Shown here piece after piece: positions 3,699 to 41,890 of a stretch of DNA of 47,864 bases (position 1 is the first letter of the stretch; each line of letters starts with the position of its first letter). A program made the position numbers and the translations under genes. The notes below the pieces were generated by a model. That model had not been told where the DNA came from and ran no database searches. It was given only the letters and a program-made list of their open reading frames with translations. The stretch is from a virus (taxonomy: Duplodnaviria > Heunggongvirae > Uroviricota > Caudoviricetes): the IMG/VR virus record IMGVR_UViG_3300025073_000001. One strand, written 5' to 3'.

Positions 3699-4178
3699 TT
3701 AATATTTTTTAAATTCAAACTTCTTCATTAAATCATCTCCAATATAAAACATTCTATCTGGAGAACAATGAACATCATAATCTTCTTCTGATAAAGCAAT
3801 ATAAATGATATATTTAGAAATATTTTTAATTCCAGAAGGTGCGAAAACAAACTCTTCTGCCATATTTTGACTTTGTCTAGTATTTTTATCTCCATATTTT
3901 AGATAGGCATCATTGACAGGTTTAATTTTATAATTCTGGCTCAACTTATCACCGTCTAATGCAAAAATGACCCTACCAAACCAAGATTTCATTTTACTAT
4001 CATTTTTCAATCTAGTCAATGATACACCTCCAATTAATTCCTTTGTCCCAGGCATCGGCTGTTTAAATTTTCCTGGAGGAAATCTATCTCGTTTAAGAAT
4101 TTCTTCAAAATTTGGAGTTTCAATGTAATGATATAAAATTCCAAGTTGCTTTCCTTCTAACAATGGTCTAAGTTTCAT
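3699..4178 (-). CDS. putative head-packaged protein with MKLRPLLE leader and ADP-ribosyltransferase-like motifs (start revised from 4271)
   Basis: AAGGAG precedes ATG at 4178, which removes the overlap with the upstream gene; LYH, VSLTR, AEE motifs. Confidence 0.5.
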   Translation of the reverse strand: MKLRPLLEGKQLGILYHYIETPNFEEILKRDRFPPGKFKQPMPGTKELIGGVSLTRLKNDSKMKSWFGRVIFALDGDKLSQNYKIKPVNDAYLKYGDKNTRQSQNMAEEFVFAPSGIKNISKYIIYIALSEEDYDVHCSPDRMFYIGDDLMKKFEFKKY

Positions 4179-4188
4179 GCAATTCTCC

Positions 4189-4710
4189 TTATTTACAAAC
4201 ATCGTCCCAATTCGGGACTTGATAAATTGAATATTTTCCGTTTGGCTGATGGGTTTCTCGATCAAATGCAATTGAAATCTTTTTTAGATTAGAAAAGGCT
4301 TCATTTGGGATGATGAAAAAAGTCCAATCTTCATTAAATGGGTTATAGCAAATGACCCTGAGTTTTCCTATTTTATTCTTGATTTCATTGACGCAGGCTC
4401 TTCGAATTGTTCTATCAATGAATTCTCCAGTTCTCTGGCCTTTTTTAACTAACCAAGTCTTTGATTTCTCATCTTGAACTGTTATCGTTTTCACATCTGA
4501 ATCGTCAGTTAAATCACGACCAATACCAACGGGACAGATTTCTAAAATTGGATTAGTTCGGCAGACTGCAATTTCTGCACATTGTGATCCACAAATTAGA
4601 TTATCTTCTAAAAGTCGATCAATGGTCACAATTCCATCAGGATAACATTTTTCTAAACAATATCTAATTAAACGCTCGTTATGATGTTTAAGACTTGAAA
4701 GTGTATTCAT
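4189..4710 (-). CDS. hypothetical protein, possible PD-(D/E)xK nuclease fold
   Basis: AE...RDLTDDSDVKT acidic/Lys spacing resembles a restriction-type active site. Confidence 0.4.
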   Translation of the reverse strand: MNTLSSLKHHNERLIRYCLEKCYPDGIVTIDRLLEDNLICGSQCAEIAVCRTNPILEICPVGIGRDLTDDSDVKTITVQDEKSKTWLVKKGQRTGEFIDRTIRRACVNEIKNKIGKLRVICYNPFNEDWTFFIIPNEAFSNLKKISIAFDRETHQPNGKYSIYQVPNWDDVCK

Positions 4711-4923
4711 TTATCTCTGATAATTTAAAATAAACTTAAAGCAATTGATCAATATTACAGCAATAAAAGTCAACAGTAAGATTGACGACGATTGCCAAAA
4801 CGTCACTTCAATTCCTGTGAAGGTTGTCCATTGATTTATTCCCCAAGTCAATCCCAATGCAGTAAAGGTTCCGAAGGCGACGAATGTCAGGAACGTTGTT
4901 AAAATATCAGTTATTTGTTTCAT
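4711..4923 (-). CDS. small membrane protein with two TM segments
   Basis: Two hydrophobic stretches in 70 aa. Confidence 0.55.
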   Translation of the reverse strand: MKQITDILTTFLTFVAFGTFTALGLTWGINQWTTFTGIEVTFWQSSSILLLTFIAVILINCFKFILNYQR

Positions 4924-5275
4924 AATATTCTAGTGATTTTAATCTTGGTTCAAGTTTCTGTAAAATCCTAAATAAGGTTCTCACAATGTAAGGCATTTCA
5001 ATTGATTCAACTGTCAGTAATCCAAGTGGATAATTTAACCTGAATTTATCTAATTCAGTTGGTTCAGTTCCGATTAATTTCTGTCTTAGAATTGAATTGA
5101 ACCATTCAGTTACTTCCAATTGTTCATTGATTACAATTTCTGACAAAGGTTTTTCATCTTCAAATACTGCCTTGAATTTAATTGAAATTACTTCAATTTG
5201 ACCTTTATTCAAGATTGAAAATTGAATAGGTTTAGTTTTAACCTTTAACTTGAATTTCTTTTCTGTTATTTTCAT
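4907..5275 (-). CDS. hypothetical protein
   Basis: 122-aa ORF in operon. Confidence 0.6.
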   Translation of the reverse strand: MKITEKKFKLKVKTKPIQFSILNKGQIEVISIKFKAVFEDEKPLSEIVINEQLEVTEWFNSILRQKLIGTEPTELDKFRLNYPLGLLTVESIEMPYIVRTLFRILQKLEPRLKSLEYYETNN

Positions 5276-5279
5276 ATTT

Positions 5280-7777: not shown

Positions 7778-7804
7778 TGGAAGTGTCCTTATTTTTAGTT
7801 ATAC

Positions 7805-16690: not shown

Positions 16691-17233
16691 TTAATTTGTG
16701 AATAATCCATTTTTCTCAATTTCTGCCAAATCTTTCAGAAACTGATTATATCTGATAAAAGGTTCAGTTACTTCAAAATTCTTGTAATGAACCATGAATT
16801 CATCCTTAATATCTCTACAGAATTCTAACCACTTCATTATTGGAATAGAATCATTGATGTTTTCAAAATCTGAAAATTGATTCCAATAACTTCTGATTAT
16901 ATTTCCTTCGTCAATGTCAAGTTTTTTGTTTGAGTTGAACCAAACCACCAATTCAGCCTCTTTCAATTCGCTTAAATTTACGTTATAAGGGCTTAAATAT
17001 TTCGCCTTGTAACAATAATCGTCGTTTGAAAGATAATCGCTTAGGCGTTGAATTTCGCAGCCTGTGACGTCATTGTGGTGCAATCCTAAAATACATTCTT
17101 CAAAGGAAGTCAAATTGTAGAAATAAATGAACGAAATCCTATTTTCTGACCAATGTTTCCGATGGTCAGATTGTATTGGAATTATCAGTTTCTTTCCCTT
17201 TGGAATCTGTTCTATTTTATCGGCGAAAAACAT
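16691..17233 (-). CDS. family-A DNA polymerase N-terminal part (degenerate exonuclease-like region)
   Basis: Ends LAEIEKNGL, the helix that precedes the polymerase domain in PolA; IPIMK..E motif. Confidence 0.65.
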   Translation of the reverse strand: MFFADKIEQIPKGKKLIIPIQSDHRKHWSENRISFIYFYNLTSFEECILGLHHNDVTGCEIQRLSDYLSNDDYCYKAKYLSPYNVNLSELKEAELVVWFNSNKKLDIDEGNIIRSYWNQFSDFENINDSIPIMKWLEFCRDIKDEFMVHYKNFEVTEPFIRYNQFLKDLAEIEKNGLFTN

Positions 17234-17250
17234 CCTTTAGGTTTATTCCA

Positions 17251-17282
17251 CAATGATACAACTTTTTTCTGACAATTCCAAA
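17251..17282 (-). promoter_or_regulatory. host-type promoter TTTG-N20-TATCATTG for the polymerase unit
   Basis: -33 exact, -7 with one mismatch, 20-nt spacer. Confidence 0.5.
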
Positions 17283-17283
17283 T

Positions 17284-17547
17284 TTATTTTCTTCGGAGAT
17301 TTTTCAATTTCATCTGAGCTTCTGGCATTGGCAAATTTGAAGGAGGTGGAAGTTCTGACCATGCAATGACCAAATGTCCAGATGAATTCATTCTGAAATT
17401 TTCAGATTCATTGTAACCTCGATTGTACGAATCAATCGTCACGACTCTCTTTCCATCCCTTCCAGATTGACCGTTTAAAATAGCAGTAACAAGAACATTT
17501 TCACCAACTGGTGGAACTATCTTCGGAAATGGATTCCATTTGATCAT
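17284..17547 (-). CDS. small phage protein, DUF551-like
   Basis: W......PP.G..VLV...VIAWSELPPP pattern. Confidence 0.55.
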   Translation of the reverse strand: MIKWNPFPKIVPPVGENVLVTAILNGQSGRDGKRVVTIDSYNRGYNESENFRMNSSGHLVIAWSELPPPSNLPMPEAQMKLKNLRRK

Positions 17548-17561
17548 AATGATTTTCCTAT

Positions 17562-17798
17562 TTAGAACGGACTTGCTTCTTTAAAAATTGCTTTGGTGAA
17601 CGCCTTAGATTGACCATCCATATTCAAGTAATATCTACCAAACCATTCCCACTGCTTCTTTTTCAATGAATCTGTGATGATTCTCTCAAATTCACGATAG
17701 TCATTCTTTTCTTTGGCAGAAGTTAATGCTCCGAGATATTCTTCATATTTGGCGAAGTTTTCTTCTTTTAAAAGTGATCTTAGTTTTGTATCTTTCAT
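17562..17798 (-). CDS. small protein with KLRSLLKE leader (putative internal head protein)
   Basis: N-terminal motif shared with several ORFs in the window. Confidence 0.55.
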   Translation of the reverse strand: MKDTKLRSLLKEENFAKYEEYLGALTSAKEKNDYREFERIITDSLKKKQWEWFGRYYLNMDGQSKAFTKAIFKEASPF

Positions 17799-17801
17799 TT
17801 A

Positions 17802-18047
17802 TTATCCATATTTTAATGATTTTCTAATATCTCTTAAAAAACTTTTAAGATTTGGGTATTTTTTATATTTTCCAGTCTGTAAATCATATTTAAAATATTG
17901 TCCATTTTCAACATCTCCCCTTGGTTGGATGAAATATTGATAAGTCATATCGTTGCTATACGTTCCACCAGATTTAAAATGATTAATTATTTCTTCATCT
18001 TGTTGTGAATTTGGAATTTCATTCAACAAATCTCGCATTTTTATCAT
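17802..18047 (-). CDS. small protein with KMRDLLNE leader (putative internal head protein)
   Basis: Shared N-terminal motif. Confidence 0.55.
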   Translation of the reverse strand: MIKMRDLLNEIPNSQQDEEIINHFKSGGTYSNDMTYQYFIQPRGDVENGQYFKYDLQTGKYKKYPNLKSFLRDIRKSLKYG

Positions 18048-18613
18048 CGATAAAACTCCAAGTTATTCGTTAGTGATAAATTCAAATATGGAAAATTAAT
18101 CAAATTCTTCTGAATTTCCCTTCCGTTTAAATATTCTGCGTCATTTACTGGTATCTTTGAAATAATCCAATCAATCCGAACTTTATTATAAATAACTCCA
18201 TTGATTCCTGGATTGTTTTGAGTATTAACTGATTGGAATTGTAAGTGGTCTATTTCAATAATCGTATTCATCGGACTATTTCTCTTTTGAACGAAAAATC
18301 TCTCAATCTTCCCTCGTTTATAATCATCCGCTGTTGGAAACGGTGAAAATGAAACTGGTGGTAAATGCCGATTAATTTCATTCCCTGTAATTTGATTATA
18401 TCTTAAAATATCAGGTGTCGGATTCAACCTGAGTTCAAATAATTCAACTGAACCTTTTTCTGGGCGAAAACCTGAAAATCGCTGCCCAGAAGGTAATATA
18501 TGAAAACCTCCAATATATTCCTCGCCAGTTTTGATGACAAATTCTCCACCTTCAGTCATGAGACCTTTGGTGATTTGATGAAGATTATAAAAAGGTTTTT
18601 TAATACGACTCAT
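18044..18613 (-). CDS. probable baseplate-region structural protein
   Basis: Position after hub gene; T.GGEF...EYIG.FH, PT..DY..G.I.RFF pattern. Confidence 0.5.
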   Translation of the reverse strand: MSRIKKPFYNLHQITKGLMTEGGEFVIKTGEEYIGGFHILPSGQRFSGFRPEKGSVELFELRLNPTPDILRYNQITGNEINRHLPPVSFSPFPTADDYKRGKIERFFVQKRNSPMNTIIEIDHLQFQSVNTQNNPGINGVIYNKVRIDWIISKIPVNDAEYLNGREIQKNLINFPYLNLSLTNNLEFYR

Positions 18614-19386
18614 ATATTTTTGCCCACAAACTGTTTATATTCAATAATTCCAAAAATTAATGAATTTATAATTTGTATCTTTCTAACTTGGCGTATTTTT
18701 CTTAATTCTTGTTTTCTTTCTTCACTCAGCCTTCTTCCTTTTCTAACTTCACTTAATTTTTTAATGTGTTCTGCACTTTGCGGACCTCTATTAATTCCTT
18801 TAGTTCCGTTTCTAATATTTTCCTTATGTTGTTCAGTGTGAGGTTTAATCTTAACCCCATCTTTTGCCTTACTGATATTTTCCTTATGTATTTCTGAAAA
18901 TTGTCTGCCTTTATTTGCGAGACTAATTCGATGTTTATGATCTTCCGTTATTGCTGGTTTAGACTTTCCCTTAGTAGCGATTGAAATTTTTTGCTTAGTT
19001 TCATCAGATATAACGATAACTTGCAATTTTCTCTTTTCTCTAATTTTTTGCTTAGTTTCTTCTTTCATTGGAGGTCTTGGATTTAATAATTTTTTACCCA
19101 GATTTCCAATTCCTCTCCCTCCAATAACACAATTGTAAGTGTCTTCTCGACGGAGAAAATCTATATTAACAATTTCTTTTTCTTTAACAACCATTTCATC
19201 TGGATTATCATAAATAAATAATATTTTTCGTTCAAAATTCAATCTTCCATATTTTTTAATTGCTCTAAGAAGTAAGGTTCCAGAACCTAGATATCGATCC
19301 TCTAATATATTTGTTGAATGAATACCAATATAAATTTTTTCATTAATTAAATTTGTCGTTTGATAGACAATATAATATTTTTTCAA
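18610..19386 (-). CDS. GIY-YIG homing endonuclease (Seg-like) with NUMOD3-type repeats
   Basis: IVYQTTNLINEKIYIGIH, YLGSG, AIKKYG; repeated EETKQKI/EEHK..IS; TTG start with TAAGGAG. Confidence 0.88.
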   Translation of the reverse strand: MKKYYIVYQTTNLINEKIYIGIHSTNILEDRYLGSGTLLLRAIKKYGRLNFERKILFIYDNPDEMVVKEKEIVNIDFLRREDTYNCVIGGRGIGNLGKKLLNPRPPMKEETKQKIREKRKLQVIVISDETKQKISIATKGKSKPAITEDHKHRISLANKGRQFSEIHKENISKAKDGVKIKPHTEQHKENIRNGTKGINRGPQSAEHIKKLSEVRKGRRLSEERKQELRKIRQVRKIQIINSLIFGIIEYKQFVGKNI

Positions 19387-19397
19387 AAATAAACTCC

Positions 19398-21368
19398 TTA
19401 TAAATTTTGATATGAAACTTTAGGGAAGTATGCTAAAATCCCGCTTAGCGATGTCTGCCAGTCAGAGGCTTGAAAATGGTTTTTTACAGAAACTATCATG
19501 AAATACGACTTATAAGCAGTTCGCCAAGTTGCAGGAACTTGAGTTGAACTGATTCCATTCCCTGGGACGAATCCCCAAATTCCATCAATGTCAATTGAAA
19601 TGCTCAAACCTGGATAGTGAACCGTTTCATTCGTTGCAGTTTCAGGGAAGTTTTTATGAATCCGGCCCATTGCCGATTTCAGAGCATCAATCTCGTTTCC
19701 ATTAAAATAGTTTTCACCTAAATTCCCAGGATCATTTATTATTTCATATTTATCGTTTCCAGCCTTAATGTATTCAGAAGTTCTAGTATCTTTTAATTTA
19801 TCGTTGCAACCTCGTATTGCTGCGAACGCATCTCCGTCTTTACTTGCTCCGACAAACATGGCTGCTTTGTATTCTGCGGATCCAACGTTTGATTGAACGT
19901 CACAAGTTCTAGTTGAACCATCTCCGTCAATTGGATCAAATACAATAACTGGCAAAGTATCAGTGACTCCAAAGTTTTGATCTACGACCATTAATTTCGT
20001 TAAATCATCTGGATCTTCAACCAATCTAAGTGCAATTGCACCTCCAACGCATTGTGAAATGTGATCTGCCAATTTTTCAAAGAAATCAACAATATTAATC
20101 GTTTCTTCCTTTGAATCTTTTACGTCTGTATTGTCAGATTCACTTTCCCTCTTTTTCGTTGCAGCAAGGAACGTTGAATTAACAATGTCCCTGTGAATCA
20201 TTATATTTTGCAAGTCAATGTCACTTCCAGATTTACATCTAACCGCATCTAAATTCAAGCAGTCTCCGTCAAAATCTTTTCCATCACCATCAGTGTTTTT
20301 ATAATTCGCATCTCCCATCAACAAAACCGTTCTTGGATCTCCAGAAGTAATCAAATCTGAAATTTTACATTTTGACCATTCTGGATGGAAAGTTATCTTT
20401 AATTTATTGAAAGTGTCTTTATCGTGGGCTACTCCACAGCCCATTGATCTCAACAATTGATTATTTATTATTCTATTTACAATGTAACCAAGCGAGACAA
20501 ATACTTGATTATTTGCAGTCGTCACTTCATCTTGTGCGAACCATGAATTGATCCAAGCATTGAATTTTCCACCGACATCTCTCAAGTGATCTCCATTGAA
20601 AATTACAATTGCCGCTTTTTCATTTCCACTTGGAGAATAATCAACGAATGTTGAAACAACAAACCCATCTTGAAAATCATCAATTGATAGTTTTCCGTTG
20701 ACTTGAGCGTCACCTGCGATTAGTTGTGCAACTCCTTTAATCGGGTGTCTTTTTTCTTCCCTTCCGGTGTAATATTGCAATCCACCTCCACCTCCGGGAC
20801 AACCGTTACAAACGATGATTTGCATATCTAAGTTTTTAATTGCTATGGCTGAACTCACTGCTGTAAAACTGGCTAACCAATTTCCATCCTGTGTCGTTGA
20901 AAATGAAAATGATGCAACTTTAAATCCCTTTAATTCACCACTGTTTCCATATCCCCAATTTGGTTGAGCGTATCCGAATTTAACGTCAACTTCATTTCCT
21001 GGAAGCAAGAATTTTTCCTGAACTTCAACGAAATCTCGCATCGTGTAACATCTGATCGTTGCAGATAATTTCCTTGCAAGGCCCCAATCTCCACCGTATT
21101 CAATCGTTACTGATTCAATGTCAGGTCCGGGTTTAATTCCTCCACCTGAATATCTGTAAGCCATTTCTATATTATCCTGATCTCTTGGAAGAATCATAGT
21201 TCCTCCTCCTCCACATCTCATATCATGTCCAGTTATAATGACATACGCAGGATTCCGGACGGAAGTTGACTTTCCACCTATTTGAGGTGAAGTCATTAAA
21301 GAACGCCTTGCTTTTAAAATATCAACAACGTCTTTAATTGGTTTTCTTCGGTATAAACTTTCTGCCAT
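19398..21368 (-). CDS. baseplate hub protein (gp27/VgrG-like)
   Basis: Follows LysM wedge gene; VKFGY, C-terminal ISIDIDGI.G..PG...FMI..V.N....DW.T.L. Confidence 0.6.
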   Translation of the reverse strand: MAESLYRRKPIKDVVDILKARRSLMTSPQIGGKSTSVRNPAYVIITGHDMRCGGGGTMILPRDQDNIEMAYRYSGGGIKPGPDIESVTIEYGGDWGLARKLSATIRCYTMRDFVEVQEKFLLPGNEVDVKFGYAQPNWGYGNSGELKGFKVASFSFSTTQDGNWLASFTAVSSAIAIKNLDMQIIVCNGCPGGGGGLQYYTGREEKRHPIKGVAQLIAGDAQVNGKLSIDDFQDGFVVSTFVDYSPSGNEKAAIVIFNGDHLRDVGGKFNAWINSWFAQDEVTTANNQVFVSLGYIVNRIINNQLLRSMGCGVAHDKDTFNKLKITFHPEWSKCKISDLITSGDPRTVLLMGDANYKNTDGDGKDFDGDCLNLDAVRCKSGSDIDLQNIMIHRDIVNSTFLAATKKRESESDNTDVKDSKEETINIVDFFEKLADHISQCVGGAIALRLVEDPDDLTKLMVVDQNFGVTDTLPVIVFDPIDGDGSTRTCDVQSNVGSAEYKAAMFVGASKDGDAFAAIRGCNDKLKDTRTSEYIKAGNDKYEIINDPGNLGENYFNGNEIDALKSAMGRIHKNFPETATNETVHYPGLSISIDIDGIWGFVPGNGISSTQVPATWRTAYKSYFMIVSVKNHFQASDWQTSLSGILAYFPKVSYQNL

Positions 21369-21371
21369 TAT

Positions 21372-21581
21372 TTACTTTTCTAAATTTCTCTTCATCTGCT
21401 TCATTTTTTCTTCAATTCCGTATAGAGTATCATCTAATTGATTGGAAAAGGTTTCATAATCAGAATCTAATTCGCGTTCAAGTAAATCCATCTGAGTTCT
21501 GATGTATTTGAAAGATTCTCTGATGATATATTTCTTCTTATCTGGAACTGAACCTTCATTCATTAAACTTCTTAATTTCAT
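21372..21581 (-). CDS. small coiled-coil protein with MKLRSLMNE leader
   Basis: Shared N-terminal motif; GGAG upstream. Confidence 0.55.
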   Translation of the reverse strand: MKLRSLMNEGSVPDKKKYIIRESFKYIRTQMDLLERELDSDYETFSNQLDDTLYGIEEKMKQMKRNLEK

Positions 21582-21593
21582 GCAATGACTCCG

Positions 21594-21899
21594 TTAAAAT
21601 TGTGCATTTGTGAATAATTGTTCAATCTCTATCTGACTTAGAGGGAAAGGAATCCTTAATCTGAATCCAACTGGAGGTTTAATCGTCGCATTGTTTAATT
21701 TATTCGCTTTCGCCAAAACAATCCAAAATCTCGTATCTCCATAATATTGATATGCAATTAAATCCAATCTGTCACTTATCTTGCAAATGATGTATTGGTC
21801 GGATGACTTTTTTTCAAACTTTGGATAATAGAGCGTTGCATAACGTCTTTTACCGTTTTCTGTTTGGATGACTTCGCTGAATTCTTTGTATCTGAGCAT
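21594..21899 (-). CDS. LysM-type baseplate wedge protein (T4 gp53 / P2 gpX-like)
   Basis: DRLDLIAYQYYGD..FWI.LA.AN....G.RLRIP. Confidence 0.85.
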   Translation of the reverse strand: MLRYKEFSEVIQTENGKRRYATLYYPKFEKKSSDQYIICKISDRLDLIAYQYYGDTRFWIVLAKANKLNNATIKPPVGFRLRIPFPLSQIEIEQLFTNAQF

Positions 21900-21903
21900 T
21901 TAA

Positions 21904-22158
21904 TTACTTGGTTTGATTACTTCGTTTGTAAAAATTATGAATATAATAAACGTCTGTTTTGCCAGTATTTGTATTTTTAACAGTCACTTTGTCCCTTTCT
22001 ATTTTTAAAACTTCAAAATCAAAGCCTTGAACCGTATTTCCTACAGTATCTCCGACTTCAAATTCTCCAGTTCTTCTAGCATAATTAGAGGATGCTTCTT
22101 TCAGTAGTTCTTTCTTGACCATTTTTCCAATGGCTTCATCTAATAATTTTTTGTTCAT
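21904..22158 (-). CDS. small SH3-like protein with helical ...ELLKE leader
   Basis: FEVGDTV...FEVLKI beta pattern after the leader. Confidence 0.5.
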   Translation of the reverse strand: MNKKLLDEAIGKMVKKELLKEASSNYARRTGEFEVGDTVGNTVQGFDFEVLKIERDKVTVKNTNTGKTDVYYIHNFYKRSNQTK

Positions 22159-22169
22159 TTTTTATTCCT

Positions 22170-22709
22170 TTAAGTTATATCGTTTAAAAAATATCTTTTT
22201 CCTGCATCTGGTCTCTCGCCAAGTGAATTTGCAAGAATTTTAATCGTTAAACTGACATCTGTATAAAGTGGTCTCTTTTCTTTCCAAGGATATTCAGGTT
22301 TCCAATCATAAGTTAATGATTGAATTATTCCGTAACTTTGAACTAAGTTTCCAATCTTGAAGTAAACATGGGGAGAATTATATCCAGAACCACCTTCGTA
22401 AATTGGATAAGTCATTCTTCCTAATCTAGCAAGTAAAAAGTCGTGATTCTTATCATGTTCAATCTTGTTCATTCCAACAACGAAGAAAGAAACGTTCCAA
22501 GTCCGATTTGCTCCTGCATAAAATACCTTCGGATCAGCCCTTCCCATATCAAAGAATTCACTGTATGATGGATTGGACGAATCACTTAAAGCAGTGATAT
22601 GTGCTTCAAATTCAAGTTTCCAATCCTTTTCTTCCAAACGTCCACTCCCTGGGTCAAAACGCCAGAAATAAAACTGTTCTTTAGGGAAATCTGATCTAGG
22701 TCTGGCCAA
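22170..22709 (-). CDS. tube-initiator / baseplate tube-fold protein (gp48/gp54-like)
   Basis: FEAHIT.LSDS, GRADP..FY.G..R, YP.Y, P.V...IGNL, I.SLTYDW...PW; between tape measure and LysM genes. Confidence 0.65.
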   Translation of the reverse strand: MARPRSDFPKEQFYFWRFDPGSGRLEEKDWKLEFEAHITALSDSSNPSYSEFFDMGRADPKVFYAGANRTWNVSFFVVGMNKIEHDKNHDFLLARLGRMTYPIYEGGSGYNSPHVYFKIGNLVQSYGIIQSLTYDWKPEYPWKEKRPLYTDVSLTIKILANSLGERPDAGKRYFLNDIT

Positions 22710-22922
22710 TTATTTTCCTTGATTTGAAGAAATCAATTTTAAAATCTCGGCAGTTGCGAATTTAGCAGCATTACCTCCAGGCTTTCCTTGTGCCGTTTGA
22801 AGAACTGCCTTTTCAACAATTTTATAAATTTGTTTTGTTAATTTATCAGTTCCGAGCGTTGGCGGTTGATAAAAATCAGGTTCTTCTTTCAACAAATCTT
22901 TCATTTTAATTGATTTCATCAT
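22710..22922 (-). CDS. small protein with KMKDLLKE leader
   Basis: Shared N-terminal motif. Confidence 0.55.
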   Translation of the reverse strand: MMKSIKMKDLLKEEPDFYQPPTLGTDKLTKQIYKIVEKAVLQTAQGKPGGNAAKFATAEILKLISSNQGK

Positions 22923-22928
22923 TTTTCC

Positions 22929-25900
22929 TTAGTTGTTATTAAATTTCTTCGTTATTGCACTGATTTTTTGACCATCTAAGACCAAGGTTGGATCTTTCTT
23001 AACCAAGATTTGCATCAATGCTACCATTTGCTTCAAGAGCATATTCGTTTCTTGATTGTCTGGAATAGTATCTTCTTGATAAGTATCCGTTTGCCTCTGA
23101 TTTACTTGATAAGGTGAACTTGCGGCAAATTGAGTTGAAGCAGTTCTTTCAAGTGTCATTCCAGATTCTTCACCGTTTGAACCTTTGGTATTCAAGAGTT
23201 TATCTTGTGCCATCGCTTCTTTTCTAGGTGTTTGAACCTTTGGAACTTGACTCTGAACAGGGGAAATTTTAACTTGAGTTGAATCCTGTTGAACTCCTTC
23301 GTAATTCTGAACGATTGGTTTGATTTTTTCCTTAGCAACTGAATCAATTCCAATTTTGGGGATTTCAGCCAGTTTGTCAAGTCCGGATAAATCCAAATTT
23401 GCCAGCGTTTCAGCCAAGACAAACAACGCATCGTTCAATCCTGTTAAAACTTTCTGGACAATATACAACGGTTCTGCGAGATTTCCAAGTTTTTCCAGAT
23501 CTTTAACAACATCTCCTCCAAATAACTTAGAAATACTACTTGAAACTGCTCCTGCTGACATTGCAGCCAAACCAAGTCCAATACTAGCAAGTGCTGGTCC
23601 GATAGTTAAAAGTTTCATCACGTCAATATTTCCCAAAGTTTCAAATACTTGGGAAATTCCAGAAGCGGTTGCAGTTATTACAGTCGCAATTCCATTAAAT
23701 GCTTTCTGAATTACGTTTCCAAATGCTTCCAATCCGGGAGTCGCAATTAATAAGGCTGCTGACAAAGGAAGTAATGATGCGCCTAATGCGGCAATTCCAA
23801 TCGCACCAAGTAACATTAATGGAAGAAAACTTCCAATTATTCCACCTGCAACTCCAAGACCGATTAACGCAACACCTGCTTTTGCCAAACTTGACCATTC
23901 GATCTTTGCAAACATATCCAACGCATAAGCAGCCGGAATCAATGCAGCACCGAGTGCAGCGATTGCAACTGCACCAATTAACATTTGAACGGATGCTGAA
24001 CCGAGTGATAAAGCGACGATTGCTAAACCGCCCAACGCAACTCCTGCTTTTGCTAAATCTTCCCACTTTACAGAAGTAAAGTTTTGAATTGCTTTTGACG
24101 CAATCCACAACGCTCCAGATAAAATTACCAGAGTTGCTGCTCCTTTTAAGGCCGAACCTTTGAACGAACTCAATCCATCTCCAATCCCTTTCAGTACATT
24201 TTTAATCGCTTCACCAATTCCCGAAGAAAGTTCCTTCATTGAAGTTGAAACAAACTTTACAATATCAGTTAAAACTGTTTTAATTCCGTCCCAAACTGTC
24301 TTTAAAATATTGGTGAATGAACTGAAACCTGAACCTGTTTTTTTAGCAACGTCTTGGATTGGTTCCTGTGGAGATGGAATATTTATTTTTCTACTTCTGG
24401 TCGTTGATTGGACGGTTTTTTCTGAGATTGACTTGGTTTTACTAATGACATCTTGAACTTGTTCAATTGGAGCCAAGACTTGCTTCCCTTGATCTGCCAA
24501 ATTATCAAATGTCCCTAACATTGAAGTGGTTGAACCTGGAAGTATTTTCTTCGCAAAATCAGCAATTCTTCCAAAAACTCCTTTACCTTTTGTTTCAATT
24601 CCATCAAATGCCTTTGTTCCCGAATTCTCAACTGAACCAAAGGCTTTACTCAATTTTTTTATCGGTTTTTCTAACTTTCCTTCAATTCCTTTTTCTATTT
24701 TTTTACTGAATACTTTTTCAATTCCTTCCGAAAGATAGCCAGTTAATAATGAGCCTGCTCCCATGAATGCCATGTCAAACATTCCACCCATGTTATCAGT
24801 CATTGAACTGGTTGCTTCTTCTCCATCCTTTTTCATTGTAAAAAATGAAGTTGCAGAACGCATCGCCATAATAGCAAAGGTTTTAGAGGCAATTTCACCA
24901 ATCGTTCCAAATCCTTTCCGAGCAGTATCTGGATTGATAAATGACATTTTTCCACCTTTTGCTGCAACTGCTTGAGTTCTAGTTACTGCAATTTGAGCAT
25001 CTTTTGCCATTTTTGCAGTTGAAGCAGTAACGGATGAAGTTGTCTTTGAAACACTTGCAGCAACTTCTGAATTCATTTTAGTCGCTGCTGAACTTACAAT
25101 TGAAGTATCTTTTTGCAAGGATTCTGCGACGTTTGCACTTACTTTACTTGCTTCGGCGGATACGTTTTGAGCACCTGATGTAATTGAATTAAAAGTTTCT
25201 TTAATGGAATCTGCAATTCCAGTCATCGTGCTGCCAATTGAATCAACCATTGAACTCATTGATGATTGAACTGATGAAGCCATTTCACGAACAGATGCTG
25301 CGGAACTTGCTGCGGTATCTTTGGCAGATTTATCAGCCGATCCGAATAACTTTCCAATTATCGGAATTTTAGATGCAAACTCTCCAATTCCATTATTTAA
25401 GAGACCGAACCTTTTAGCGATGAAAATTCCACCAATTATCTCACCAATTCCAATCAGAATTTTGACAACTTCACCAAGATACTTTCCAGTTCCAGAAACT
25501 GAATCGCCAAATTCATCCATTTCACCAGTCATTGATTTAAGTAAATCAGTTCCCCATGTCAATGGCCTGAGAATGACTTGAATTAAAGGTCCGATCATTT
25601 TAATGATTGAACCAATTCCCTTCAGTCCCATTATTAAAATATCCAATATTGGAGAAATAGCATCAATTCCAGTTGCTAATGATTCTACCAATGGAAGTAA
25701 TGAATTTACGAGAACGCCTTTAATTTTATCCCACGCAACTCCTAATCTATCCGTTGATTGAAGTGATTGAAGTTTATTTTTAATATCATCTTGACTCAAG
25801 GATGAAATATCGCCCATTCTATCTAAATTTGCCTGTAAATATTTCTGCTGATCATCTCCAAGACCAGCCATTTTACTTTGTAACATTACAGATTTTGCTA

Positions 25901-28109
25901 ATTCATCCACCGACATTCCGAGAGTCTTTGCAGTTTTCATTCGCAGTGTCGGATCCATTCTATTAAAATCTTCAATCGTTCCCATCTCCTTGACAATATC
26001 TCTCGTCATTCCTTCAATATCGCCCATTAAACCTTTTTCAAATGCTCCACTGAAATCAATTCCACCAGCGGACATTGCCTGAAGTTCATACATATCAGTC
26101 ATGAATCCTTCCATATCTGCAATCATGTCCTGGGCAATTCCACCTGCTTGCTTTAAACTCAATCCCATCCTGCGGACATTTATCGCTGTCTTTGCAGCCA
26201 GTTCAGGCATTCCTCCGAAATAAGTTGCAACTTCGGCAGCCGAATCAATTAAATCTTGTGCAACAATTTGAGGAGATAAACCTGCCATTTCTGACATCAT
26301 TCCTAAATTCTTCTGAAGATTCAATGACATTTTATCATCAGCACCTAATCTTTCAAATGTCTTGTGCAATTCAACGGCTTGTTCATTTCCATAACCGAAA
26401 TATTTTCCAACCTCAATTAAATTAATTGATAATTCTTTTGCTCCTTTATTATTTAAATCGAACATTTTTCCTGACGTTCCAATCATTGAAGTTTGAACGT
26501 CTTGAATGTCTTTCATCGTTGCAAATTGATTCTTCTGACTGGTCAATGTATCTAACTGAACTTGGTGAAGTTCCTTTGCTTGACCTAGAGATATTTTCAT
26601 CTCAGAAGCCATTTCTTTGTATTTATCAGTAATACTTGAAACAAATTTAAACAAGAGAACTGCCGAAGTCACGATTAACAGCATTGGATTCAAAGCCAGA
26701 CTCAGAGCAGGTTTAAAGGCTTTCATATATGAAGCCATAGATTTTGAATAATCTGAACTTTTTTGCAATTCAGCGGCAAAATCTTCAACTCCCTTTTTAT
26801 GTGAATCCATCAATGCCCCGGAAACCTTTGAAAGCCCGATGAATTCAGAAATTCCGGCCGGTAGAAGTTCATTGATATATTCAAACCCAGATCCAACTTT
26901 CAAAACAATTGATTCGGCAGTTTTCAATTTATCAGAAAATTCACTTAATCCCTTGACCAATGCGTACTGCTTGGCAATTTCCTTTTCTTGTAGTTGTAAA
27001 TTAACCTGATGTGCTAAATTATTTTCGGCAAGAATTTGACCTGCTGCACCTATTGGCTTGATTAATTCGGAATAACGCTTTTTTTGTTCTTCAGTTAAAT
27101 TATTTCCAAGTGAAATCAAATCAACCAATTCTTCAAACGAAGGAATTAGAATTTCTTTAAATCCTTTATTCTTTGCGGTTTTATCGAGTTCCTTCGCCAT
27201 CTTCTCAAATTCTTTCGTTCCCGGTTCAAGTATTCCAGTCAACGTTTTTATCTGCCCCGTATCAACATCAACTTCAATTCCAATCTTTTGACCTGCCATT
27301 TGTCGCAGCATATTGGTTTGAAGTTTTTCATTTTCTTTAAATGAACTTCTAAGTGCATCAATTCTGAGATTTTTTTCAATTTTAACGTTATCAATCGTTT
27401 TAGCAATTTCAGTGTCAAGTTGATCCGTTAATGGATTGAAATTTAAATCAACGTTGAACAATTCGCCCGAAGCAGATGAAACCAAACTTTTTAAATCAGA
27501 TTTCATATTAGAAATTAAAGTTTGAACTCCTTCAATGCTGGATTTTGAATCATCGAACATTGAATCAAGGTTGATTTCACTTCCTGATGCTTTTAAATTT
27601 TCATAAACCTTATCGAGTCCGACTCCAAACTGTCCAATCTGCTTTTTACTGGCTTGGACTGATTTTAAAATATCTTCGTAATTACCAAGTAAATTCTTGG
27701 TCAGGTCAATTTCACCGTCTAATAATTGATTTGTCGCTTTTTTTAACGCGTTGTAATTCTTTGAATCATCAATTATATCAGAATTGATCTTTTCAATTTC
27801 CCTGAACTTCTTAGTGATTTCAGTTAAATCGTCCTTTGAAATCTTCCTCTCTTTGGCCCATTTAGTGATGAATTCATCAGTTATTGCATAACCTTCGGAT
27901 TCAACCTTAGAAATCAATTCCTTAGCATCTCTGGCATTGGCAACGAATCCCGATTCTATTAAAGACATCACCTTTAATAGTTCACGATTGATCCTAACTT
28001 GTTCTTTTGAAGATGATTCGGACGTTTGGACAACTTTGAAGAGTTTGTCCATTATCTTCTTCATTTCCAAAGCATCCTTAGATGATCCTGAGTCTTTTGC
28101 CTTAGCCAT
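22929..28109 (-). CDS. tail tape measure protein
   Basis: 1726 aa, helical and Ala/Gly-rich, W..LAKAGVAL repeats, hydrophobic segments, terminal LVLDG.KI. Confidence 0.88.
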   Translation of the reverse strand: MAKAKDSGSSKDALEMKKIMDKLFKVVQTSESSSKEQVRINRELLKVMSLIESGFVANARDAKELISKVESEGYAITDEFITKWAKERKISKDDLTEITKKFREIEKINSDIIDDSKNYNALKKATNQLLDGEIDLTKNLLGNYEDILKSVQASKKQIGQFGVGLDKVYENLKASGSEINLDSMFDDSKSSIEGVQTLISNMKSDLKSLVSSASGELFNVDLNFNPLTDQLDTEIAKTIDNVKIEKNLRIDALRSSFKENEKLQTNMLRQMAGQKIGIEVDVDTGQIKTLTGILEPGTKEFEKMAKELDKTAKNKGFKEILIPSFEELVDLISLGNNLTEEQKKRYSELIKPIGAAGQILAENNLAHQVNLQLQEKEIAKQYALVKGLSEFSDKLKTAESIVLKVGSGFEYINELLPAGISEFIGLSKVSGALMDSHKKGVEDFAAELQKSSDYSKSMASYMKAFKPALSLALNPMLLIVTSAVLLFKFVSSITDKYKEMASEMKISLGQAKELHQVQLDTLTSQKNQFATMKDIQDVQTSMIGTSGKMFDLNNKGAKELSINLIEVGKYFGYGNEQAVELHKTFERLGADDKMSLNLQKNLGMMSEMAGLSPQIVAQDLIDSAAEVATYFGGMPELAAKTAINVRRMGLSLKQAGGIAQDMIADMEGFMTDMYELQAMSAGGIDFSGAFEKGLMGDIEGMTRDIVKEMGTIEDFNRMDPTLRMKTAKTLGMSVDELAKSVMLQSKMAGLGDDQQKYLQANLDRMGDISSLSQDDIKNKLQSLQSTDRLGVAWDKIKGVLVNSLLPLVESLATGIDAISPILDILIMGLKGIGSIIKMIGPLIQVILRPLTWGTDLLKSMTGEMDEFGDSVSGTGKYLGEVVKILIGIGEIIGGIFIAKRFGLLNNGIGEFASKIPIIGKLFGSADKSAKDTAASSAASVREMASSVQSSMSSMVDSIGSTMTGIADSIKETFNSITSGAQNVSAEASKVSANVAESLQKDTSIVSSAATKMNSEVAASVSKTTSSVTASTAKMAKDAQIAVTRTQAVAAKGGKMSFINPDTARKGFGTIGEIASKTFAIMAMRSATSFFTMKKDGEEATSSMTDNMGGMFDMAFMGAGSLLTGYLSEGIEKVFSKKIEKGIEGKLEKPIKKLSKAFGSVENSGTKAFDGIETKGKGVFGRIADFAKKILPGSTTSMLGTFDNLADQGKQVLAPIEQVQDVISKTKSISEKTVQSTTRSRKINIPSPQEPIQDVAKKTGSGFSSFTNILKTVWDGIKTVLTDIVKFVSTSMKELSSGIGEAIKNVLKGIGDGLSSFKGSALKGAATLVILSGALWIASKAIQNFTSVKWEDLAKAGVALGGLAIVALSLGSASVQMLIGAVAIAALGAALIPAAYALDMFAKIEWSSLAKAGVALIGLGVAGGIIGSFLPLMLLGAIGIAALGASLLPLSAALLIATPGLEAFGNVIQKAFNGIATVITATASGISQVFETLGNIDVMKLLTIGPALASIGLGLAAMSAGAVSSSISKLFGGDVVKDLEKLGNLAEPLYIVQKVLTGLNDALFVLAETLANLDLSGLDKLAEIPKIGIDSVAKEKIKPIVQNYEGVQQDSTQVKISPVQSQVPKVQTPRKEAMAQDKLLNTKGSNGEESGMTLERTASTQFAASSPYQVNQRQTDTYQEDTIPDNQETNMLLKQMVALMQILVKKDPTLVLDGQKISAITKKFNNN

Positions 28110-28345
28110 TACTTATCCTTCTTGTAATCTTTACAACGCTTATAATGAGGGAATCTGTCACACATTGATTTCAACTCACGTTCAAATTCATCTGCATGGA
28201 ACTTGATCGAATCCATCGTTGCTTTCAGAGAAGGATCCCTTTCAATGTCATTTTTTGTGAATTCCCTCTTCATCGCAGCAGATGCTAATAATTTAGCGAT
28301 TTGAACGAAGAGATTTTCCCGTAGATTTTCTAGTTTTTTTGCCAT
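28109..28345 (-). CDS. small protein upstream of tape measure (start revised to MAKKLENLRE)
   Basis: ATG lies just after the late motif; the longer start falls inside the promoter repeat. Confidence 0.55.
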   Translation of the reverse strand: MAKKLENLRENLFVQIAKLLASAAMKREFTKNDIERDPSLKATMDSIKFHADEFERELKSMCDRFPHYKRCKDYKKDK

Positions 28346-38510: not shown

Positions 38511-38535
38511 TAGTTTTTCCTCATTTTATTTTGAG

Positions 38536-39540: not shown

Positions 39541-39617
39541 TGAACAAGTTTATTTCCTATAATTATACTCAAAAAATTTGAAACCAAATCGGTCAAAAAC
39601 GATTACTGAATTACTAA

Positions 39618-39845
39618 TTAAGATCTATATTTTGCTTTTAAATAATATTTTTCATTTAAATATTTGACAATTGCAGCAGGGATTTCATTTTCATCTGCGG
39701 TAACTCCGGAAGATTTTGAATCAATTTCATTAATTGCCTTTTCTATGACAATAGCAACAATTCTCATATCAACTGATTCATTCAATCTTCTCCTTACTTC
39801 TTTCCTGATGTAACTTTCGATCAACTTTTCTTGCTTTGCTGTCAT
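39618..39845 (-). CDS. small protein with MTAKQEKLIESYIRK...LNE leader
   Basis: Leader near-identical to that of 41579-41890. Confidence 0.6.
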   Translation of the reverse strand: MTAKQEKLIESYIRKEVRRRLNESVDMRIVAIVIEKAINEIDSKSSGVTADENEIPAAIVKYLNEKYYLKAKYRS

Positions 39846-39865
39846 ATTATTTCCTTTTTAATTAT

Positions 39866-40735
39866 TTATCGAATATTCCTTTTTAATCCAGTTTGTAATC
39901 TATTTGAAGTGGGATCAATATTTGGTTGAGTTATATCTGCAATTTGATCGAATAATATTTGTTCCGTTCCTTCTTGGAGGAACTTGACTGTTTTGATTGA
40001 ATATGCTTTTTGAATGTTTGATTCTTGATAAGTGAATTCATTCCTTAAATATCCATCAACTTGAAGAGCCATTGTTGTCTTGACTAATCTATCTTCTCCT
40101 GGAATATTTACATTTTCATGAGCGGTTGAAGTAATTACGGTTCTAAATTTCCAATAATCACCCCACATATGACCATCAAAATCTATCAGTTGCTGAACCA
40201 GAACATTCATTTGTTCCTGTAAATCAGTCCAAATAATTAAATCATAAGTTAACCTGACGTAGGTTGGAATTTGTAATAAATAATATTCAACTGATTCTTT
40301 TCTAGCATATTGACCTGCAACTTTATCGTATTGCATCCCATTGGTTCTATATGGGATTAACTTGGTTGAATTAGCAAATGTTGAAGTTTGACCTGGGAAC
40401 ATTGCGATTCTATCATCATTGGCAACATCATTTCTCTTGATTATTATTAATGGGGATTGAATCTTTTTTGATGCGTCCCTAAGGTAGCCCATTGATCGAA
40501 CCTGAGCCCATTTCTCACCATTGCTGAACATGACAGGAACTGGAATTGAAACATCGTTTTCAATTATTTTTGGTTTCCAAACTTCCTGCAAATGGTAGAA
40601 AATTCCAAAATCTATATCAAAAAGAGTTACCTTCGGAACCTTGACCACATCTGAACGACGATCCATTTGTTCCGCTCTATTGGCGTTTGAATCAACGGTT
40701 CTTCCGTCCTGATATGCGGCTATTTTTGGCTTCAA
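39866..40735 (-). CDS. tail terminator / sheath stabiliser (T4 gp15-like)
   Basis: L.DID, VPVM....EKW, PLI.I.R, P.YV...Y...IWT...EQMN; position between neck and sheath. Confidence 0.7.
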   Translation of the reverse strand: MKPKIAAYQDGRTVDSNANRAEQMDRRSDVVKVPKVTLFDIDFGIFYHLQEVWKPKIIENDVSIPVPVMFSNGEKWAQVRSMGYLRDASKKIQSPLIIIKRNDVANDDRIAMFPGQTSTFANSTKLIPYRTNGMQYDKVAGQYARKESVEYYLLQIPTYVRLTYDLIIWTDLQEQMNVLVQQLIDFDGHMWGDYWKFRTVITSTAHENVNIPGEDRLVKTTMALQVDGYLRNEFTYQESNIQKAYSIKTVKFLQEGTEQILFDQIADITQPNIDPTSNRLQTGLKRNIR

Positions 40736-41284
40736 TTATAGGTTCCTTGGTAAATTATTATTTGTTCTAACTGTATTCAATCCACTGCGAACGTTAACTA
40801 AATTTAATTGTGATATTCTAGTTTGATGTGTTGAACATTTGACTGCAACGTTGTAACCGAATCCATAGTTGCTCCGGCCTTCAGTGGTAATTGGTAAAGT
40901 ATCCGGGTTCCTTCCGAACCAATATTGATTTTCTACCGTGTTGTCAATTTCAAAGTATTTTTCATTGAACTTGATCACATCTCCAGTTTCAATCACCAAG
41001 TCAATATCTTTCAAATCATCCCTTAGAAAATTGAAAGTTACTAATTGATTAACTTGCATCCCTGTATCTTGATCGTCCATTGAAATATCTTCCTTTAAAA
41101 CAAGGCAGAATAACCTGACTGGATCGAAATATTTCTTAGAAGTCGATTCTTGATAAATCGTGACGTTTGAATCAATCAAAGAGAGTTTGAAGAACGCAAT
41201 CTCGACTGAAATTATGTCAGAAATTACTTCTTTAGATATGTGTTTAATTAATAATGCGTCTCGACTGGATCCAAATAAGCTCAA
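40736..41284 (-). CDS. neck / head-closure protein (T4 gp14-like)
   Basis: MSLFG..RD, N..IY.E, F.FLR.DL, E.GD.I.....YFEID. Confidence 0.7.
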   Translation of the reverse strand: MSLFGSSRDALLIKHISKEVISDIISVEIAFFKLSLIDSNVTIYQESTSKKYFDPVRLFCLVLKEDISMDDQDTGMQVNQLVTFNFLRDDLKDIDLVIETGDVIKFNEKYFEIDNTVENQYWFGRNPDTLPITTEGRSNYGFGYNVAVKCSTHQTRISQLNLVNVRSGLNTVRTNNNLPRNL

Positions 41285-41297
41285 GTTAAATTCCTAA

Positions 41298-41582
41298 TTA
41301 AATCAATCCTTTTTTACCGCTGTTAGAAAATACTCTAACCGCTTCTTGAATTTGAAGTGATGATTTTTTTAAAAATTCTTGGATTGGTTCAATTCTCTTG
41401 TTTCCAAACCAAACATAACCTTCTTTCAATGTCATCGGAGCATTTGGATACTTTCCAGACAAGATTTTGGATAGATTGGAAAAGCGTTGTTTTGCCTTTT
41501 CATCTAACTTTGCCTTTTCTGGTTCTGTTTTTGCTGAAAGGTTCTGTTTGAAGAACCGCTCGTAATTTTCTTTTAAATTCAT
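41298..41582 (-). CDS. small protein with MNLKE leader
   Basis: ORF in neck operon; several L/V-x-E sites. Confidence 0.55.
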   Translation of the reverse strand: MNLKENYERFFKQNLSAKTEPEKAKLDEKAKQRFSNLSKILSGKYPNAPMTLKEGYVWFGNKRIEPIQEFLKKSSLQIQEAVRVFSNSGKKGLI

Positions 41583-41890
41583 TTTGTTCCTATTCTTTGT
41601 CTTTGACCTGGTGAAATTGATCTAACTGTGGTTGATTGTGGGTCATAATTTGAAAAATATTCAACAATTCTCCTCATTTGCTTCAACGTGAATTGAACTC
41701 CGTGAACACCAGTTTCAGTTTTTTGTGAAATATAAAGCGTTGTACCGACTCCACCAACGACTAATGCATCTTTCTGACCATCAGCAGGGATGATTATCTT
41801 TGCTTCTGACAGCATTGACTTCTCTTTCAGAGACTGACGAACTTGCTTTCTGATGTATGATTCAATTAATTTTTCTTGTTTTTCTGTCAT
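41579..41890 (-). CDS. small protein with MTEKQEKLIESYIRK...LKE leader (start revised)
   Basis: AAAGGA upstream of ATG at 41890. Confidence 0.6.
   Translation of the reverse strand: MTEKQEKLIESYIRKQVRQSLKEKSMLSEAKIIIPADGQKDALVVGGVGTTLYISQKTETGVHGVQFTLKQMRRIVEYFSNYDPQSTTVRSISPGQRQRIGTK

Follow-up and report, generated by a model that had tools for sequence, protein, structure and literature searches.

We found that an uncultured phage, T4-like by its genes, carries small proteins that share recurrent N-terminal leaders and are otherwise unrelated, and we consider it rather likely that these leaders act as capsid-targeting propeptides in the style of T4 and are cut off by the prohead protease. 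Since the leaders end in the cutting motif of the head protease, the small proteins that bear them would probably be packaged in the capsid in the manner of T4's injected internal proteins. We observed leader families, protein-level selection, modular cargo, linkage to head genes, a protease gene and fixed site geometry, working from a stretch of 47,864 nucleotides (the window) and its relatives. A first-pass annotation of the window had interpreted the leaders as a T4-style cargo-loading system; that interpretation is partly supported by our analysis, in which no significant family in Pfam or PHROG emerged for any of the leader ORFs or for ten longer members taken from the database, and no cargo function was recognizable with these tools.

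The N-termini quoted in the first-pass annotation are all present at minus-strand start codons. Four of them share a strict short leader:

17562..17798, minus strand: 78-aa ORF with short leader MKDTKLRSLLKE, remainder unrelated
17802..18047, minus strand: 81-aa ORF with short leader MIKMRDLLNE
21372..21581, minus strand: 69-aa ORF with short leader MKLRSLMNE
22710..22922, minus strand: 70-aa ORF with short leader M(M)KSIKMKDLLKE, directly after the tape-measure gene

The motif common to these four ORFs of 69–81 aa (starts 17798, 18047, 21581 and 22922) is K[LM][RK]xL[LM][KN]E, with the putative site ending at residues 9–13. When all six frames of the 59-kb contig were searched with the pattern K[LMI][RK].L[LM].E, we obtained four matches and none beyond these ORFs; all four are on the coding strand, within the first six residues. 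Similarly, in leave-one-out tests with a PSSM, the omitted member always ranked fourth, behind the three training members, out of 74,445 six-frame 8-mers, scoring 16.5–24.8 bits compared to 13.4 bits or less for the next position. An ortholog of the 18047 ORF (84% identity) starts MKLRKLLNE, and in relative L031 the protein at the position matching the 22922 ORF starts MKMRNLLKE, while the rest of that protein has diverged. All four strict short-leader genes lie after the tape-measure gene, outside the head genes. The genome is AT-rich, and consequently K, L, E and N are frequent in its proteins; we also note that the short leader, at 9–13 residues, has a K/L/E-rich make-up often seen in this genome.

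A generic 8-mer N-terminal similarity statistic was only weakly above shuffles; for this reason the case rests on the specific motif tests. Enrichment of a generic [LIM]-x-E at N-termini was moderate: the motif ended at residues 7–14 in 26/92 late-region proteins compared to 8/64 early-region proteins (Fisher p=0.03), and in 12/92 in an internal control window.

A second, longer leader with two putative sites heads two ORFs of the window:

39618..39845, minus strand: 75-aa ORF with leader MTAKQEKLIE/SYIRKEVRRRLNE, sites ending at residues 10 and 23
41579..41890, minus strand: 103-aa ORF with the long two-site leader MTEKQEKLIE/SYIRKQVRQSLKE

These two ORFs are identical at 18 of their first 23 residues and do not align beyond. 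Five further long-leader ORFs are present on a 229-kb metagenome scaffold (ENA ERZ28563735 scaffold_19) that carries proteins identical to ones of the window, bringing the number in the genome to seven, with the consensus MTxKQxKL[IV]ENY[IV]RxKV[KR]xxL[KN]E. In 7/7 of them, [LIV][IV]E ends at residue 10 and L[KN]E at residue 23. The suggestion of protein-level selection, made from synonymous differences between two leaders, extends to all seven: nucleotide identity at codon positions 1, 2 and 3 is 0.70, 0.77 and 0.51, and where two leaders share a residue, the codons differ in 43% of pairs. Over the 40 nt upstream, identity is 35%; the ribosome-binding site in 7/7 has the AGGA found ahead of late genes. 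As had been claimed, the downstream domains are unrelated; nothing aligns past the leaders, identity over the next 23 residues is 7%, and the mature parts comprise 44–77 aa. In six orthologs, the 41890 protein keeps its leader and an invariant L-x-E ahead of a conserved domain, and a low-confidence AlphaFold model of the protein with these six (mean pLDDT 54) has only a helix at residues 3–23, followed by a linker and a domain rich in beta structure. With a pI of 9.3–10.4, the leaders are charged and amphipathic; they have no hydrophobic run, unlike Sec or lipoprotein signal peptides, in which a hydrophobic core of ten or more residues follows a basic N-terminus. Real Sec-type leaders are present elsewhere in the window (43502–47042).

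We searched a 30-column profile of the long leader against 1.84 billion proteins (E≤1e-3) and obtained 136 matching cluster representatives, in 127 of which the leader is N-terminal. Of these 127, 100 have the first site ending at residue 10 and 99 have the second ending at residue 23; P3 of the latter is occupied by L in 100, M in 22 and I in 5. With a median length of 61 aa, the mature parts of these 127 matches fall in 116 groups unlinked by BLAST. The leaders are modular, as had been proposed, in that one leader can precede unrelated sequences, both within this genome and across more than 100 database clusters. Matches were at chance level when a long-leader ORF was compared by tblastn to 50,697 phage records, and megablast of window positions 17000–23000 against cultured phages gave no match. 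No relatives came from a related-locus search that started with the 656-aa protein at 19398–21368, and the relatives identified through UvsX (46% identity) had none of the regex-defined leaders.

The head machinery of this phage resembles that of T4. The major capsid protein of the window belongs to the Gp23 family (PF07068, 2e-77), with the match beginning at residue 69, and in its N-terminal region QLVTE/A aligns with the T4 cleavage site FLTE/AE. The 229-kb scaffold additionally encodes Peptidase_S77 and Portal_T4 proteins (PF03420 and PF07230), and its gp21-type prohead protease shares 36% identity with T4 gp21, with the LLIE and LLES motifs at the N-terminus among the shared features; the protease begins (L)KKLLIE here, where T4 gp21 has QLLIE. 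By sequence, the phage has the parts of a T4-type prohead (a capsid protein of the Gp23 family with a putative propeptide, a T4-type portal, a scaffold and a protease of the S77/gp21 type), and the link to T4 drawn in the first-pass annotation was borne out in that the phage encodes a gp21-family protease and the leaders end in L/I/M-x-E. The scaffold protein is largely acidic and probably disordered. The host is probably a member of the Bacteroidota, going by the cultured phages closest to this one; among these, Mel-JY01 infects a cyanobacterium.

Leader genes are linked to structural genes. We surveyed positions 97–210 kb (113 kb) of the 229-kb scaffold, and all strict leader ORFs there are in the late structural region (scaffold 120–173 kb); the replication region has no leader ORF except the doubtful one at 4178 (described below). 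The five extra long-leader ORFs lie among the head-assembly genes: ahead of the terminase gene, in the interval from terminase to portal, past the portal gene and past the protease gene. ORFs with the short-like leaders MSKLREIIRRIIKE, MNIKSYINKIIKE and MNSSLRNLISQLNE (the last followed by an acidic tract) are located between the portal, protease and scaffold protein genes. Leader ORFs adjoin T4 gp13-like and sheath genes in five IMG/VR relatives and in two of the three other metagenome contigs we examined, and in the third contig (<1 kb) a gp13-like reading frame is directly downstream of the leader ORF. At syntenic positions in relatives, either the cargo or the leader differs. In the cultured relative Flavobacterium phage immuto (host Flavobacterium sp. 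LMO8), whose capsid protein is 54% identical, a separate set of recurrent leaders ends in [LI]-x-E. Its leader ORFs start at 102294, 113188, 123355, 1803, 118632 and 125241, among others, and some of its leaders head ORFs in the portal–protease interval or immediately following the protease gene. Our profile did not detect immuto's leaders, and thus the two phages are linked by analogy only; a literature search found no proteomics paper on immuto.

The annotation had listed further members, which are weaker or of another type:

21904..22158, minus strand: 84-aa ORF, weaker member, with LLDE to residue 8 and ELLKE to residue 21
41298..41582, minus strand: 94-aa ORF starting MNLKENYERFF, a third recurrent N-terminus (LKExYERxFG)
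3699..4178, minus strand: 159-aa ORF starting MKLRPLLE/GKQ, uncertain member, early region
28109..28345, minus strand: 78-aa ORF starting MAKKLENLRE, weak, standing alone upstream of the tape-measure gene

The 4178 and MAKKLENLRE ORFs are weak members, and the sites of the 22158 ORF are looser. The spacing of MKLRPLLE differs from that of the strict short type; a homolog of the 4178 protein with 28% identity begins MIKLQDILKQIIE/GKQ, and the single-sequence AlphaFold model of this protein has a pLDDT of 33. MAKKLENLRE resembles the T4 gp24 N-terminus MAKINELLRE. The MNLKE start at 41582, listed as a weak member, is indeed a recurrent N-terminus, but it belongs to the LKExYERxFG type, which heads two different small-protein families in relatives. 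Two leader classes, as originally proposed, are therefore too few; at least three to four recurrent N-termini occur across the relatives and the rest of the genome.

Comparison with T4 brings out both likenesses and differences. In the T4 capsid-targeting sequence (CTS) system (IPI, IPII, IPIII and Alt, with removal by gp21), as here, the N-terminal leader is the only part that unrelated small proteins share, and the cargo turns over fast in both; the systems are also alike in their genes for a capsid protein of the Gp23 family, a portal of the T4 type and an S77 protease. The T4 IPII/IPIII tag MKTYQEFIAE/A has 10 residues, as does the first module here (MTxKQEKLIE), and the tag and the long leader agree at Q5, E6 (4/7), [L/I]8 and E10, although ten residues are too few for statistics. 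Residues 8 and 10 of the T4 tag govern processing (PMC9026906). In contrast, the T4 targeting residues Y4 and F7 are replaced here by K/R and K/Q, and the long leader has an extra 13-residue basic module with a second L-x-E that ends at residue 23. This 23-residue two-site leader looks undescribed. There are also more members here, at least seven long and at least four short in 113 kb compared to three to four in T4, and, unlike in T4, the leader genes are found throughout the head, neck and tail modules. T-even internal proteins, which have only the N-terminal packaging leader in common, are injected anti-restriction proteins (PMC3012670; PMC12373910); those of T4 inhibit host restriction systems, each being specific for a single enzyme (PMC12373910).

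Among the T4 head-protein propeptides (gp24, gp67, gp22 and gp21), that of gp24 (MAKINELLRE) is closely resembled by the short leaders K[LM][RK]xLL[KN]E, but these four T4 proteins are conserved structural or core components, whereas here the tag heads variable small ORFs. Proteases of the phiKZ type prefer a small P3 residue (S/A/G-x-E), unlike the leaders here, in which P3 is L, M or I in 127/127 and the phiKZ-type motif is lacking. In phiKZ, 201phi2-1 and SPN3US, a T4-related prohead protease cuts inner-body or ejection proteins after Glu, and the propeptides often contain more than one site (PMC9026906). The cargo proteins of these phages are large, compared to 45–130 aa here.

We considered that the tags might indeed target the prohead and be cut, with the small proteins serving as disposable core or scaffold accessories, as do T4 gp67, gp68 and gp22, that are then degraded and mostly expelled. 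The very small size of the mature parts would fit this role, as would the placement of the five long-leader and several short-like ORFs where T4 has genes 67 and 68. Prohead core components, however, are normally conserved, and the mature parts here fall in 116 unlinked groups. Moreover, the presence of a different cargo or leader at syntenic positions is a turnover that matches the T-even internal proteins (PMC3012670; PMC12373910), and we regard the accessory role as unlikely. It is quite improbable, in our view, that the conserved N-terminus forms a helix whose function has nothing to do with capsids, for example oligomerizing or binding a host or phage factor, and that the ORFs are fast-evolving paralogs that retain only this helix. 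The family members are similar in size, and residues 3–23 of the 41890 protein are modeled as one helix, at low confidence, both as paralogs of this kind might have it; but such a helix leaves unexplained Glu10 and Glu23, each with L/I/M/V two residues before it, the locking of the match to residue 1 in 127 of 135 profile matches, and the many leader genes that adjoin portal and protease genes, and no similarity is left after residue 23 to betray the paralogy.

That the tag is instead recognized by a modifying enzyme, as happens in RiPP systems, strikes us as very improbable. The window does encode a radical-SAM protein (228–2075), but this protein is QueE-like and is grouped with PTPS and GTP cyclohydrolase I, which fits 7-deazaguanine synthesis; its gene, the only radical-SAM gene, is at least 15 kb from the tagged ORFs, and no Radical_SAM or SPASM Pfam match is listed for the called genes near leader ORFs at seven annotated loci. 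We give next to no credence to the idea that the similarity reflects chance or composition, or a function at the DNA or RNA level, for instance as a translation enhancer or recombination cassette. The AT-rich genome and the weak generic similarity statistics would be expected from chance, yet the short motif is unique in six frames and passes the leave-one-out tests, and the long-leader profile finds 136 matches at E≤1e-3 among 1.84e9 proteins. For a nucleic acid element, the divergence at third codon positions is of the wrong kind, since it leaves the amino acids unchanged, and the DNA upstream shows no conservation. These six-frame, leave-one-out, codon and profile results contradict both forms of the idea.

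If the leaders are capsid-targeting propeptides, the small proteins would be made late in infection together with the head proteins, and by analogy with T4, the basic, helical N-terminal tag would dock each of them on the scaffolding core of the prohead. The gp21-type (Peptidase_S77) protease would then cut after the Glu of [L/I/M]-x-E, once in the short type, after residues 9–13, and in the long type at residue 10 and again at residue 23. Cutting would free the variable mature parts, of 45–75 residues, within the capsid, where they would be retained in the head, and from which, as in T4, they would most likely exit with the DNA at the next infection.

More tentatively, the 23-residue leader may be a widespread capsid-addressing signal of T4-like phages, probably of Bacteroidota, that marks well over 100 unrelated families of injected small proteins, with the two sites and the several leader classes routing or releasing cargo differently, perhaps through different docking partners in the core or through staged release. 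If so, the leader would open a sequence-searchable catalog of candidate anti-defense effectors and would provide a portable tag for loading foreign proteins into non-coliphage capsids. A second cleavable leader module would also extend what is known of how cargo docks on the scaffolding core. If the logic of T4 holds, an N-terminal profile would pick out hundreds of small proteins that are delivered ahead of phage gene expression, and would thereby offer a direct route to new anti-defense proteins from phages of environmentally important bacteria.

The first-pass annotation had proposed a family of small ORFs that share an N-terminal leader, and each N-terminus that it quoted was found at its minus-strand start. 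Its list of members stood for the strict short and long leaders; three ORFs are looser matches. By start codon in the window, these ORFs are:

17798, 18047, 21581 and 22922, minus strand: short leader
39845 and 41890, minus strand: 23-residue long leader
41582, minus strand: N-terminus of another recurrent kind
4178, 22158 and 28345, minus strand: looser matches

The long leaders of ORFs 39845 and 41890 are identical at 18 of their first 23 residues, the proteins do not align beyond, and the leader DNA differs at synonymous sites. In each of seven long leaders, an [LIV][IV]E has its Glu at residue 10 and an L[KN]E has its Glu at residue 23; nucleotide identity across codon positions 1, 2 and 3 is 0.70, 0.77 and 0.51, respectively, and different codons are used in 43% of codon pairs for the same residue. 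Identity is 35% over the 40 nt upstream of these genes and 7% over the 23 residues past the leader; all seven genes are preceded by an AGGA-type ribosome-binding site. The leader also persists in orthologs of the 41890 protein, which are 64-77% identical to it, and there an L-x-E directly before the conserved domain is invariant. Selection acts on the leader peptide.

The six frames of the whole contig contain four copies of the short-leader motif, K[LMI][RK].L[LM].E, each in the first six residues of a coding-strand ORF (69-81 aa). In leave-one-out PSSM searches, the left-out leader always ranked fourth among 74,445 positions, right behind the three training members and well separated from the next-ranked position. 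These leaders have a single L[LM]xE, with its Glu at residues 9-13, and the proteins show no alignment past the leader. An ortholog of the 18047 protein starts MKLRKLLNE; in an IMG/VR relative, the small ORF that follows the tape-measure gene starts MKMRNLLKE, the rest of the protein having diverged. We also note that the ORF at 3699-4202 (also L043:7874-8377) is publicly called as 167 aa from MFVNKENC. An AAGGAG ribosome-binding site lies 6 nt upstream of its second ATG (MKLRPLLE, 159 aa), the likelier start. At 21372-22158 the window has three small ORFs that its closest IMG/VR relative (L031:2762-5506) lacks; one carries a strict short leader and another a weaker leader. In the relative, a 157-aa ORF directly precedes a 665-aa ORF, which makes this a variable insertion point.

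A 59.4-kb AT-rich contig contains the window as its first 47.8 kb. Genes for replication and nucleotide metabolism (DnaB-like helicase, UvsX-like recombinase, ssDNA-binding protein, split ribonucleotide reductase) come first, and tail and neck genes (tape-measure protein, sheath, baseplate hub, adaptor) come next. Genes just past the window on this contig encode a Gp23-family major capsid protein (PF07068, 2e-77; the match begins at residue 69) and a scaffold-like protein, acidic and 344 aa long; a TnpB-like gene lies at the contig end. Among cultured phages, Microcystis phage Mel-JY01 (capsid-protein identity 56%) and Flavobacterium phage immuto (54%) are the nearest, and Rhodothermus phage RM378 is more distant. 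Sec-type signal peptides head three successive ORFs at 43502-47042, where GC is 0.48 (about 0.33 elsewhere); the 848-aa ORF among them weakly matches a phage depolymerase C-terminal domain.

The identical scaffold-like protein sequence is present on a 229-kb metagenome scaffold (ENA ERZ28563735 scaffold_19). Upstream of its gene lie genes for TnpB, a Peptidase_S77 protease, a T4-type portal and terminase. Peptidase_S77 is the family of T4 gp21, and the protease is 36% identical to gp21, with N-terminal LLIE and LLES motifs within the similarity. Four further long-leader ORFs lie in this head-assembly block, one in the terminase-portal gap, one after the portal gene and two after the protease gene; a fifth precedes the terminase gene by 4 kb. 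The block also carries ORFs beginning MSKLREIIRRIIKE, MNIKSYINKIIKE and MNSSLRNLISQLNE, the last continuing into an acidic tract, and two ORFs near 104-107 kb start with KLR[KQ]IYES[IL][LI]xE. Within the 113 kb read (97-210 kb, about half of the scaffold), all strict leader ORFs fall in the late structural region (120-173 kb), and the 37 kb of replication genes read past it hold none of them, the doubtful 4178 ORF excepted.

Some other features are noted here. The TnpB/IS605 OrfB-like gene (PF01385 and PF07282; L040:8542-9747) sits within the head-assembly operon between protease-proximal small ORFs and the scaffold gene, and the 59-kb contig terminates inside it (L001:11344-12360). Downstream of the prohead protease gene, a 72-aa ORF matching Ribosomal_S21 (PF01165; L040:7545-7763) is flanked by two long-leader ORFs. 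The family-B DNA polymerase is apparently split (L046:10001-13815) into ORFs of 410 and 429 aa, both with DNA_pol_B matches, around a 427-aa ORF without Pfam matches. On the 229-kb scaffold, a 980-aa MmeI-like type IIL restriction/methyltransferase gene (L047:1-323, at about 97 kb) adjoins tail-fibre-like genes.

A search of 1.84 billion cluster representatives with a 30-column long-leader profile gave 136 matches at E<=1e-3, all small proteins except one 723-aa outlier. The leader was N-terminal with both sites in 127 of the 135 matches retrieved; of these, 100 have the Glu of the first site at residue 10 and 99 have that of the second at residue 23, and P3 in the second site is L, M or I in all 127. 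The sequences past the leader (median 61 aa) form 116 BLAST-unlinked groups, and ten of the longest members had no Pfam match. We looked up the contigs of three matches: T4 gp13-like and sheath genes adjoin the leader ORF in two, and a gp13-like reading frame lies directly downstream in the third (<1 kb). One 3.8-kb contig has three long-leader ORFs together with two ORFs with an LKExYERxFG N-terminus, and IMG/VR relatives of the window carry a variant leader, KPTKRQIQIVEHFVKK...[LM]xE, on different cargo at the same neck positions.

Phage immuto also has three recurrent N-termini heading unrelated proteins:

Leader 1: MKKSxLxxIIKE
Leader 2: MENFDLKKFLVENKLTxNSxLLKE, with a pair of [LI]-x-E sites spaced by about 12 residues
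Leader 3: MKKQILSEQFKRMQxLAGIITES

One such ORF lies in the portal-protease gap and another directly after the protease gene. The long-leader profile detected none of the immuto leaders, and thus the likeness is one of functional analogy rather than demonstrable homology. In the immuto record (NC_055915; leader ORF starts at, for example, 1803, 25061, 103806, 111675, 117631 and 118632), the leader proteins are annotated as hypothetical or misnamed, and the acidic scaffold as 'DNA polymerase phi-like'.

We considered how these leaders compare with those of T4, whose genes we read directly. IPII and IPIII start MKTYQEFIAE|A; gp24, gp67, gp22 and gp21 start MAKINELLRE, MEGLIE, MLKEQLIAE and MNEPQLLIE. 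The short leaders resemble the gp24 N-terminus. The long leader begins with ten residues (MTxKQEKLIE) that equal the internal-protein tag in length and agree with it at Q5, [L/I]8, E10 and usually E6 (4/7), although ten residues are too few for statistics. According to a review of work on T4, residues 4 and 7 of the tag mainly set targeting, and 8 and 10 processing (PMC9026906). The long leader keeps the processing but not the targeting positions, as expected if the docking partner differs from that of T4. The T4 capsid protein cleavage site, FLTE|AE, aligns with QLVTE|A of this phage's capsid protein. T-even internal proteins have only the leader in common; they enter the host by injection and act as inhibitors of specific type IV restriction enzymes (PMC3012670; PMC12373910).

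The most economical reading, and probably the correct one, is of the T4 type: the leaders would be propeptides by which small proteins dock onto the scaffolding core, and the S77 protease would remove these leaders, cutting after Glu. In the main alternative, considerably less probable, targeting would proceed in the same way and the small proteins would be disposable core accessories. A helix unrelated to the capsid fits the data poorly and is unlikely, and a chance resemblance or nucleic-acid element, also a poor fit, is the least credible explanation. Generic [LIM]-x-E is modestly enriched at N-termini and a generic N-terminal similarity statistic is barely above shuffles; thus the case rests on the two specific leader families. 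The cargo gave no significant Pfam or PHROG match from which to assign a function, and confidence was low in both structure models made.

A tag recognised by a modifying enzyme likewise fits poorly and is very improbable: no radical-SAM enzyme is listed near the leader ORFs in seven annotated loci, and the sole radical-SAM gene, a QueE-like one, lies among genes for 7-deazaguanine synthesis. That gene (228-2075) encodes a 615-aa protein with Hint/intein matches (PF14890); downstream of it on the scaffold are PTPS, GTP cyclohydrolase I and glycosyltransferase genes, a set that points to 7-deazaguanine DNA modification.

Neither Pfam nor PHROG has a model covering the 23-residue two-site leader, and it was not described in the literature found by topic, rather than by leader motif, on capsid-targeting sequences, CTS-like propeptides and phage immuto. 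The concept of a shared capsid-targeting leader is already known from T4. What appears to be new is a 23-residue leader with two sites, on more than 100 unrelated small-protein clusters, and the coexistence of several leader classes in one phage.
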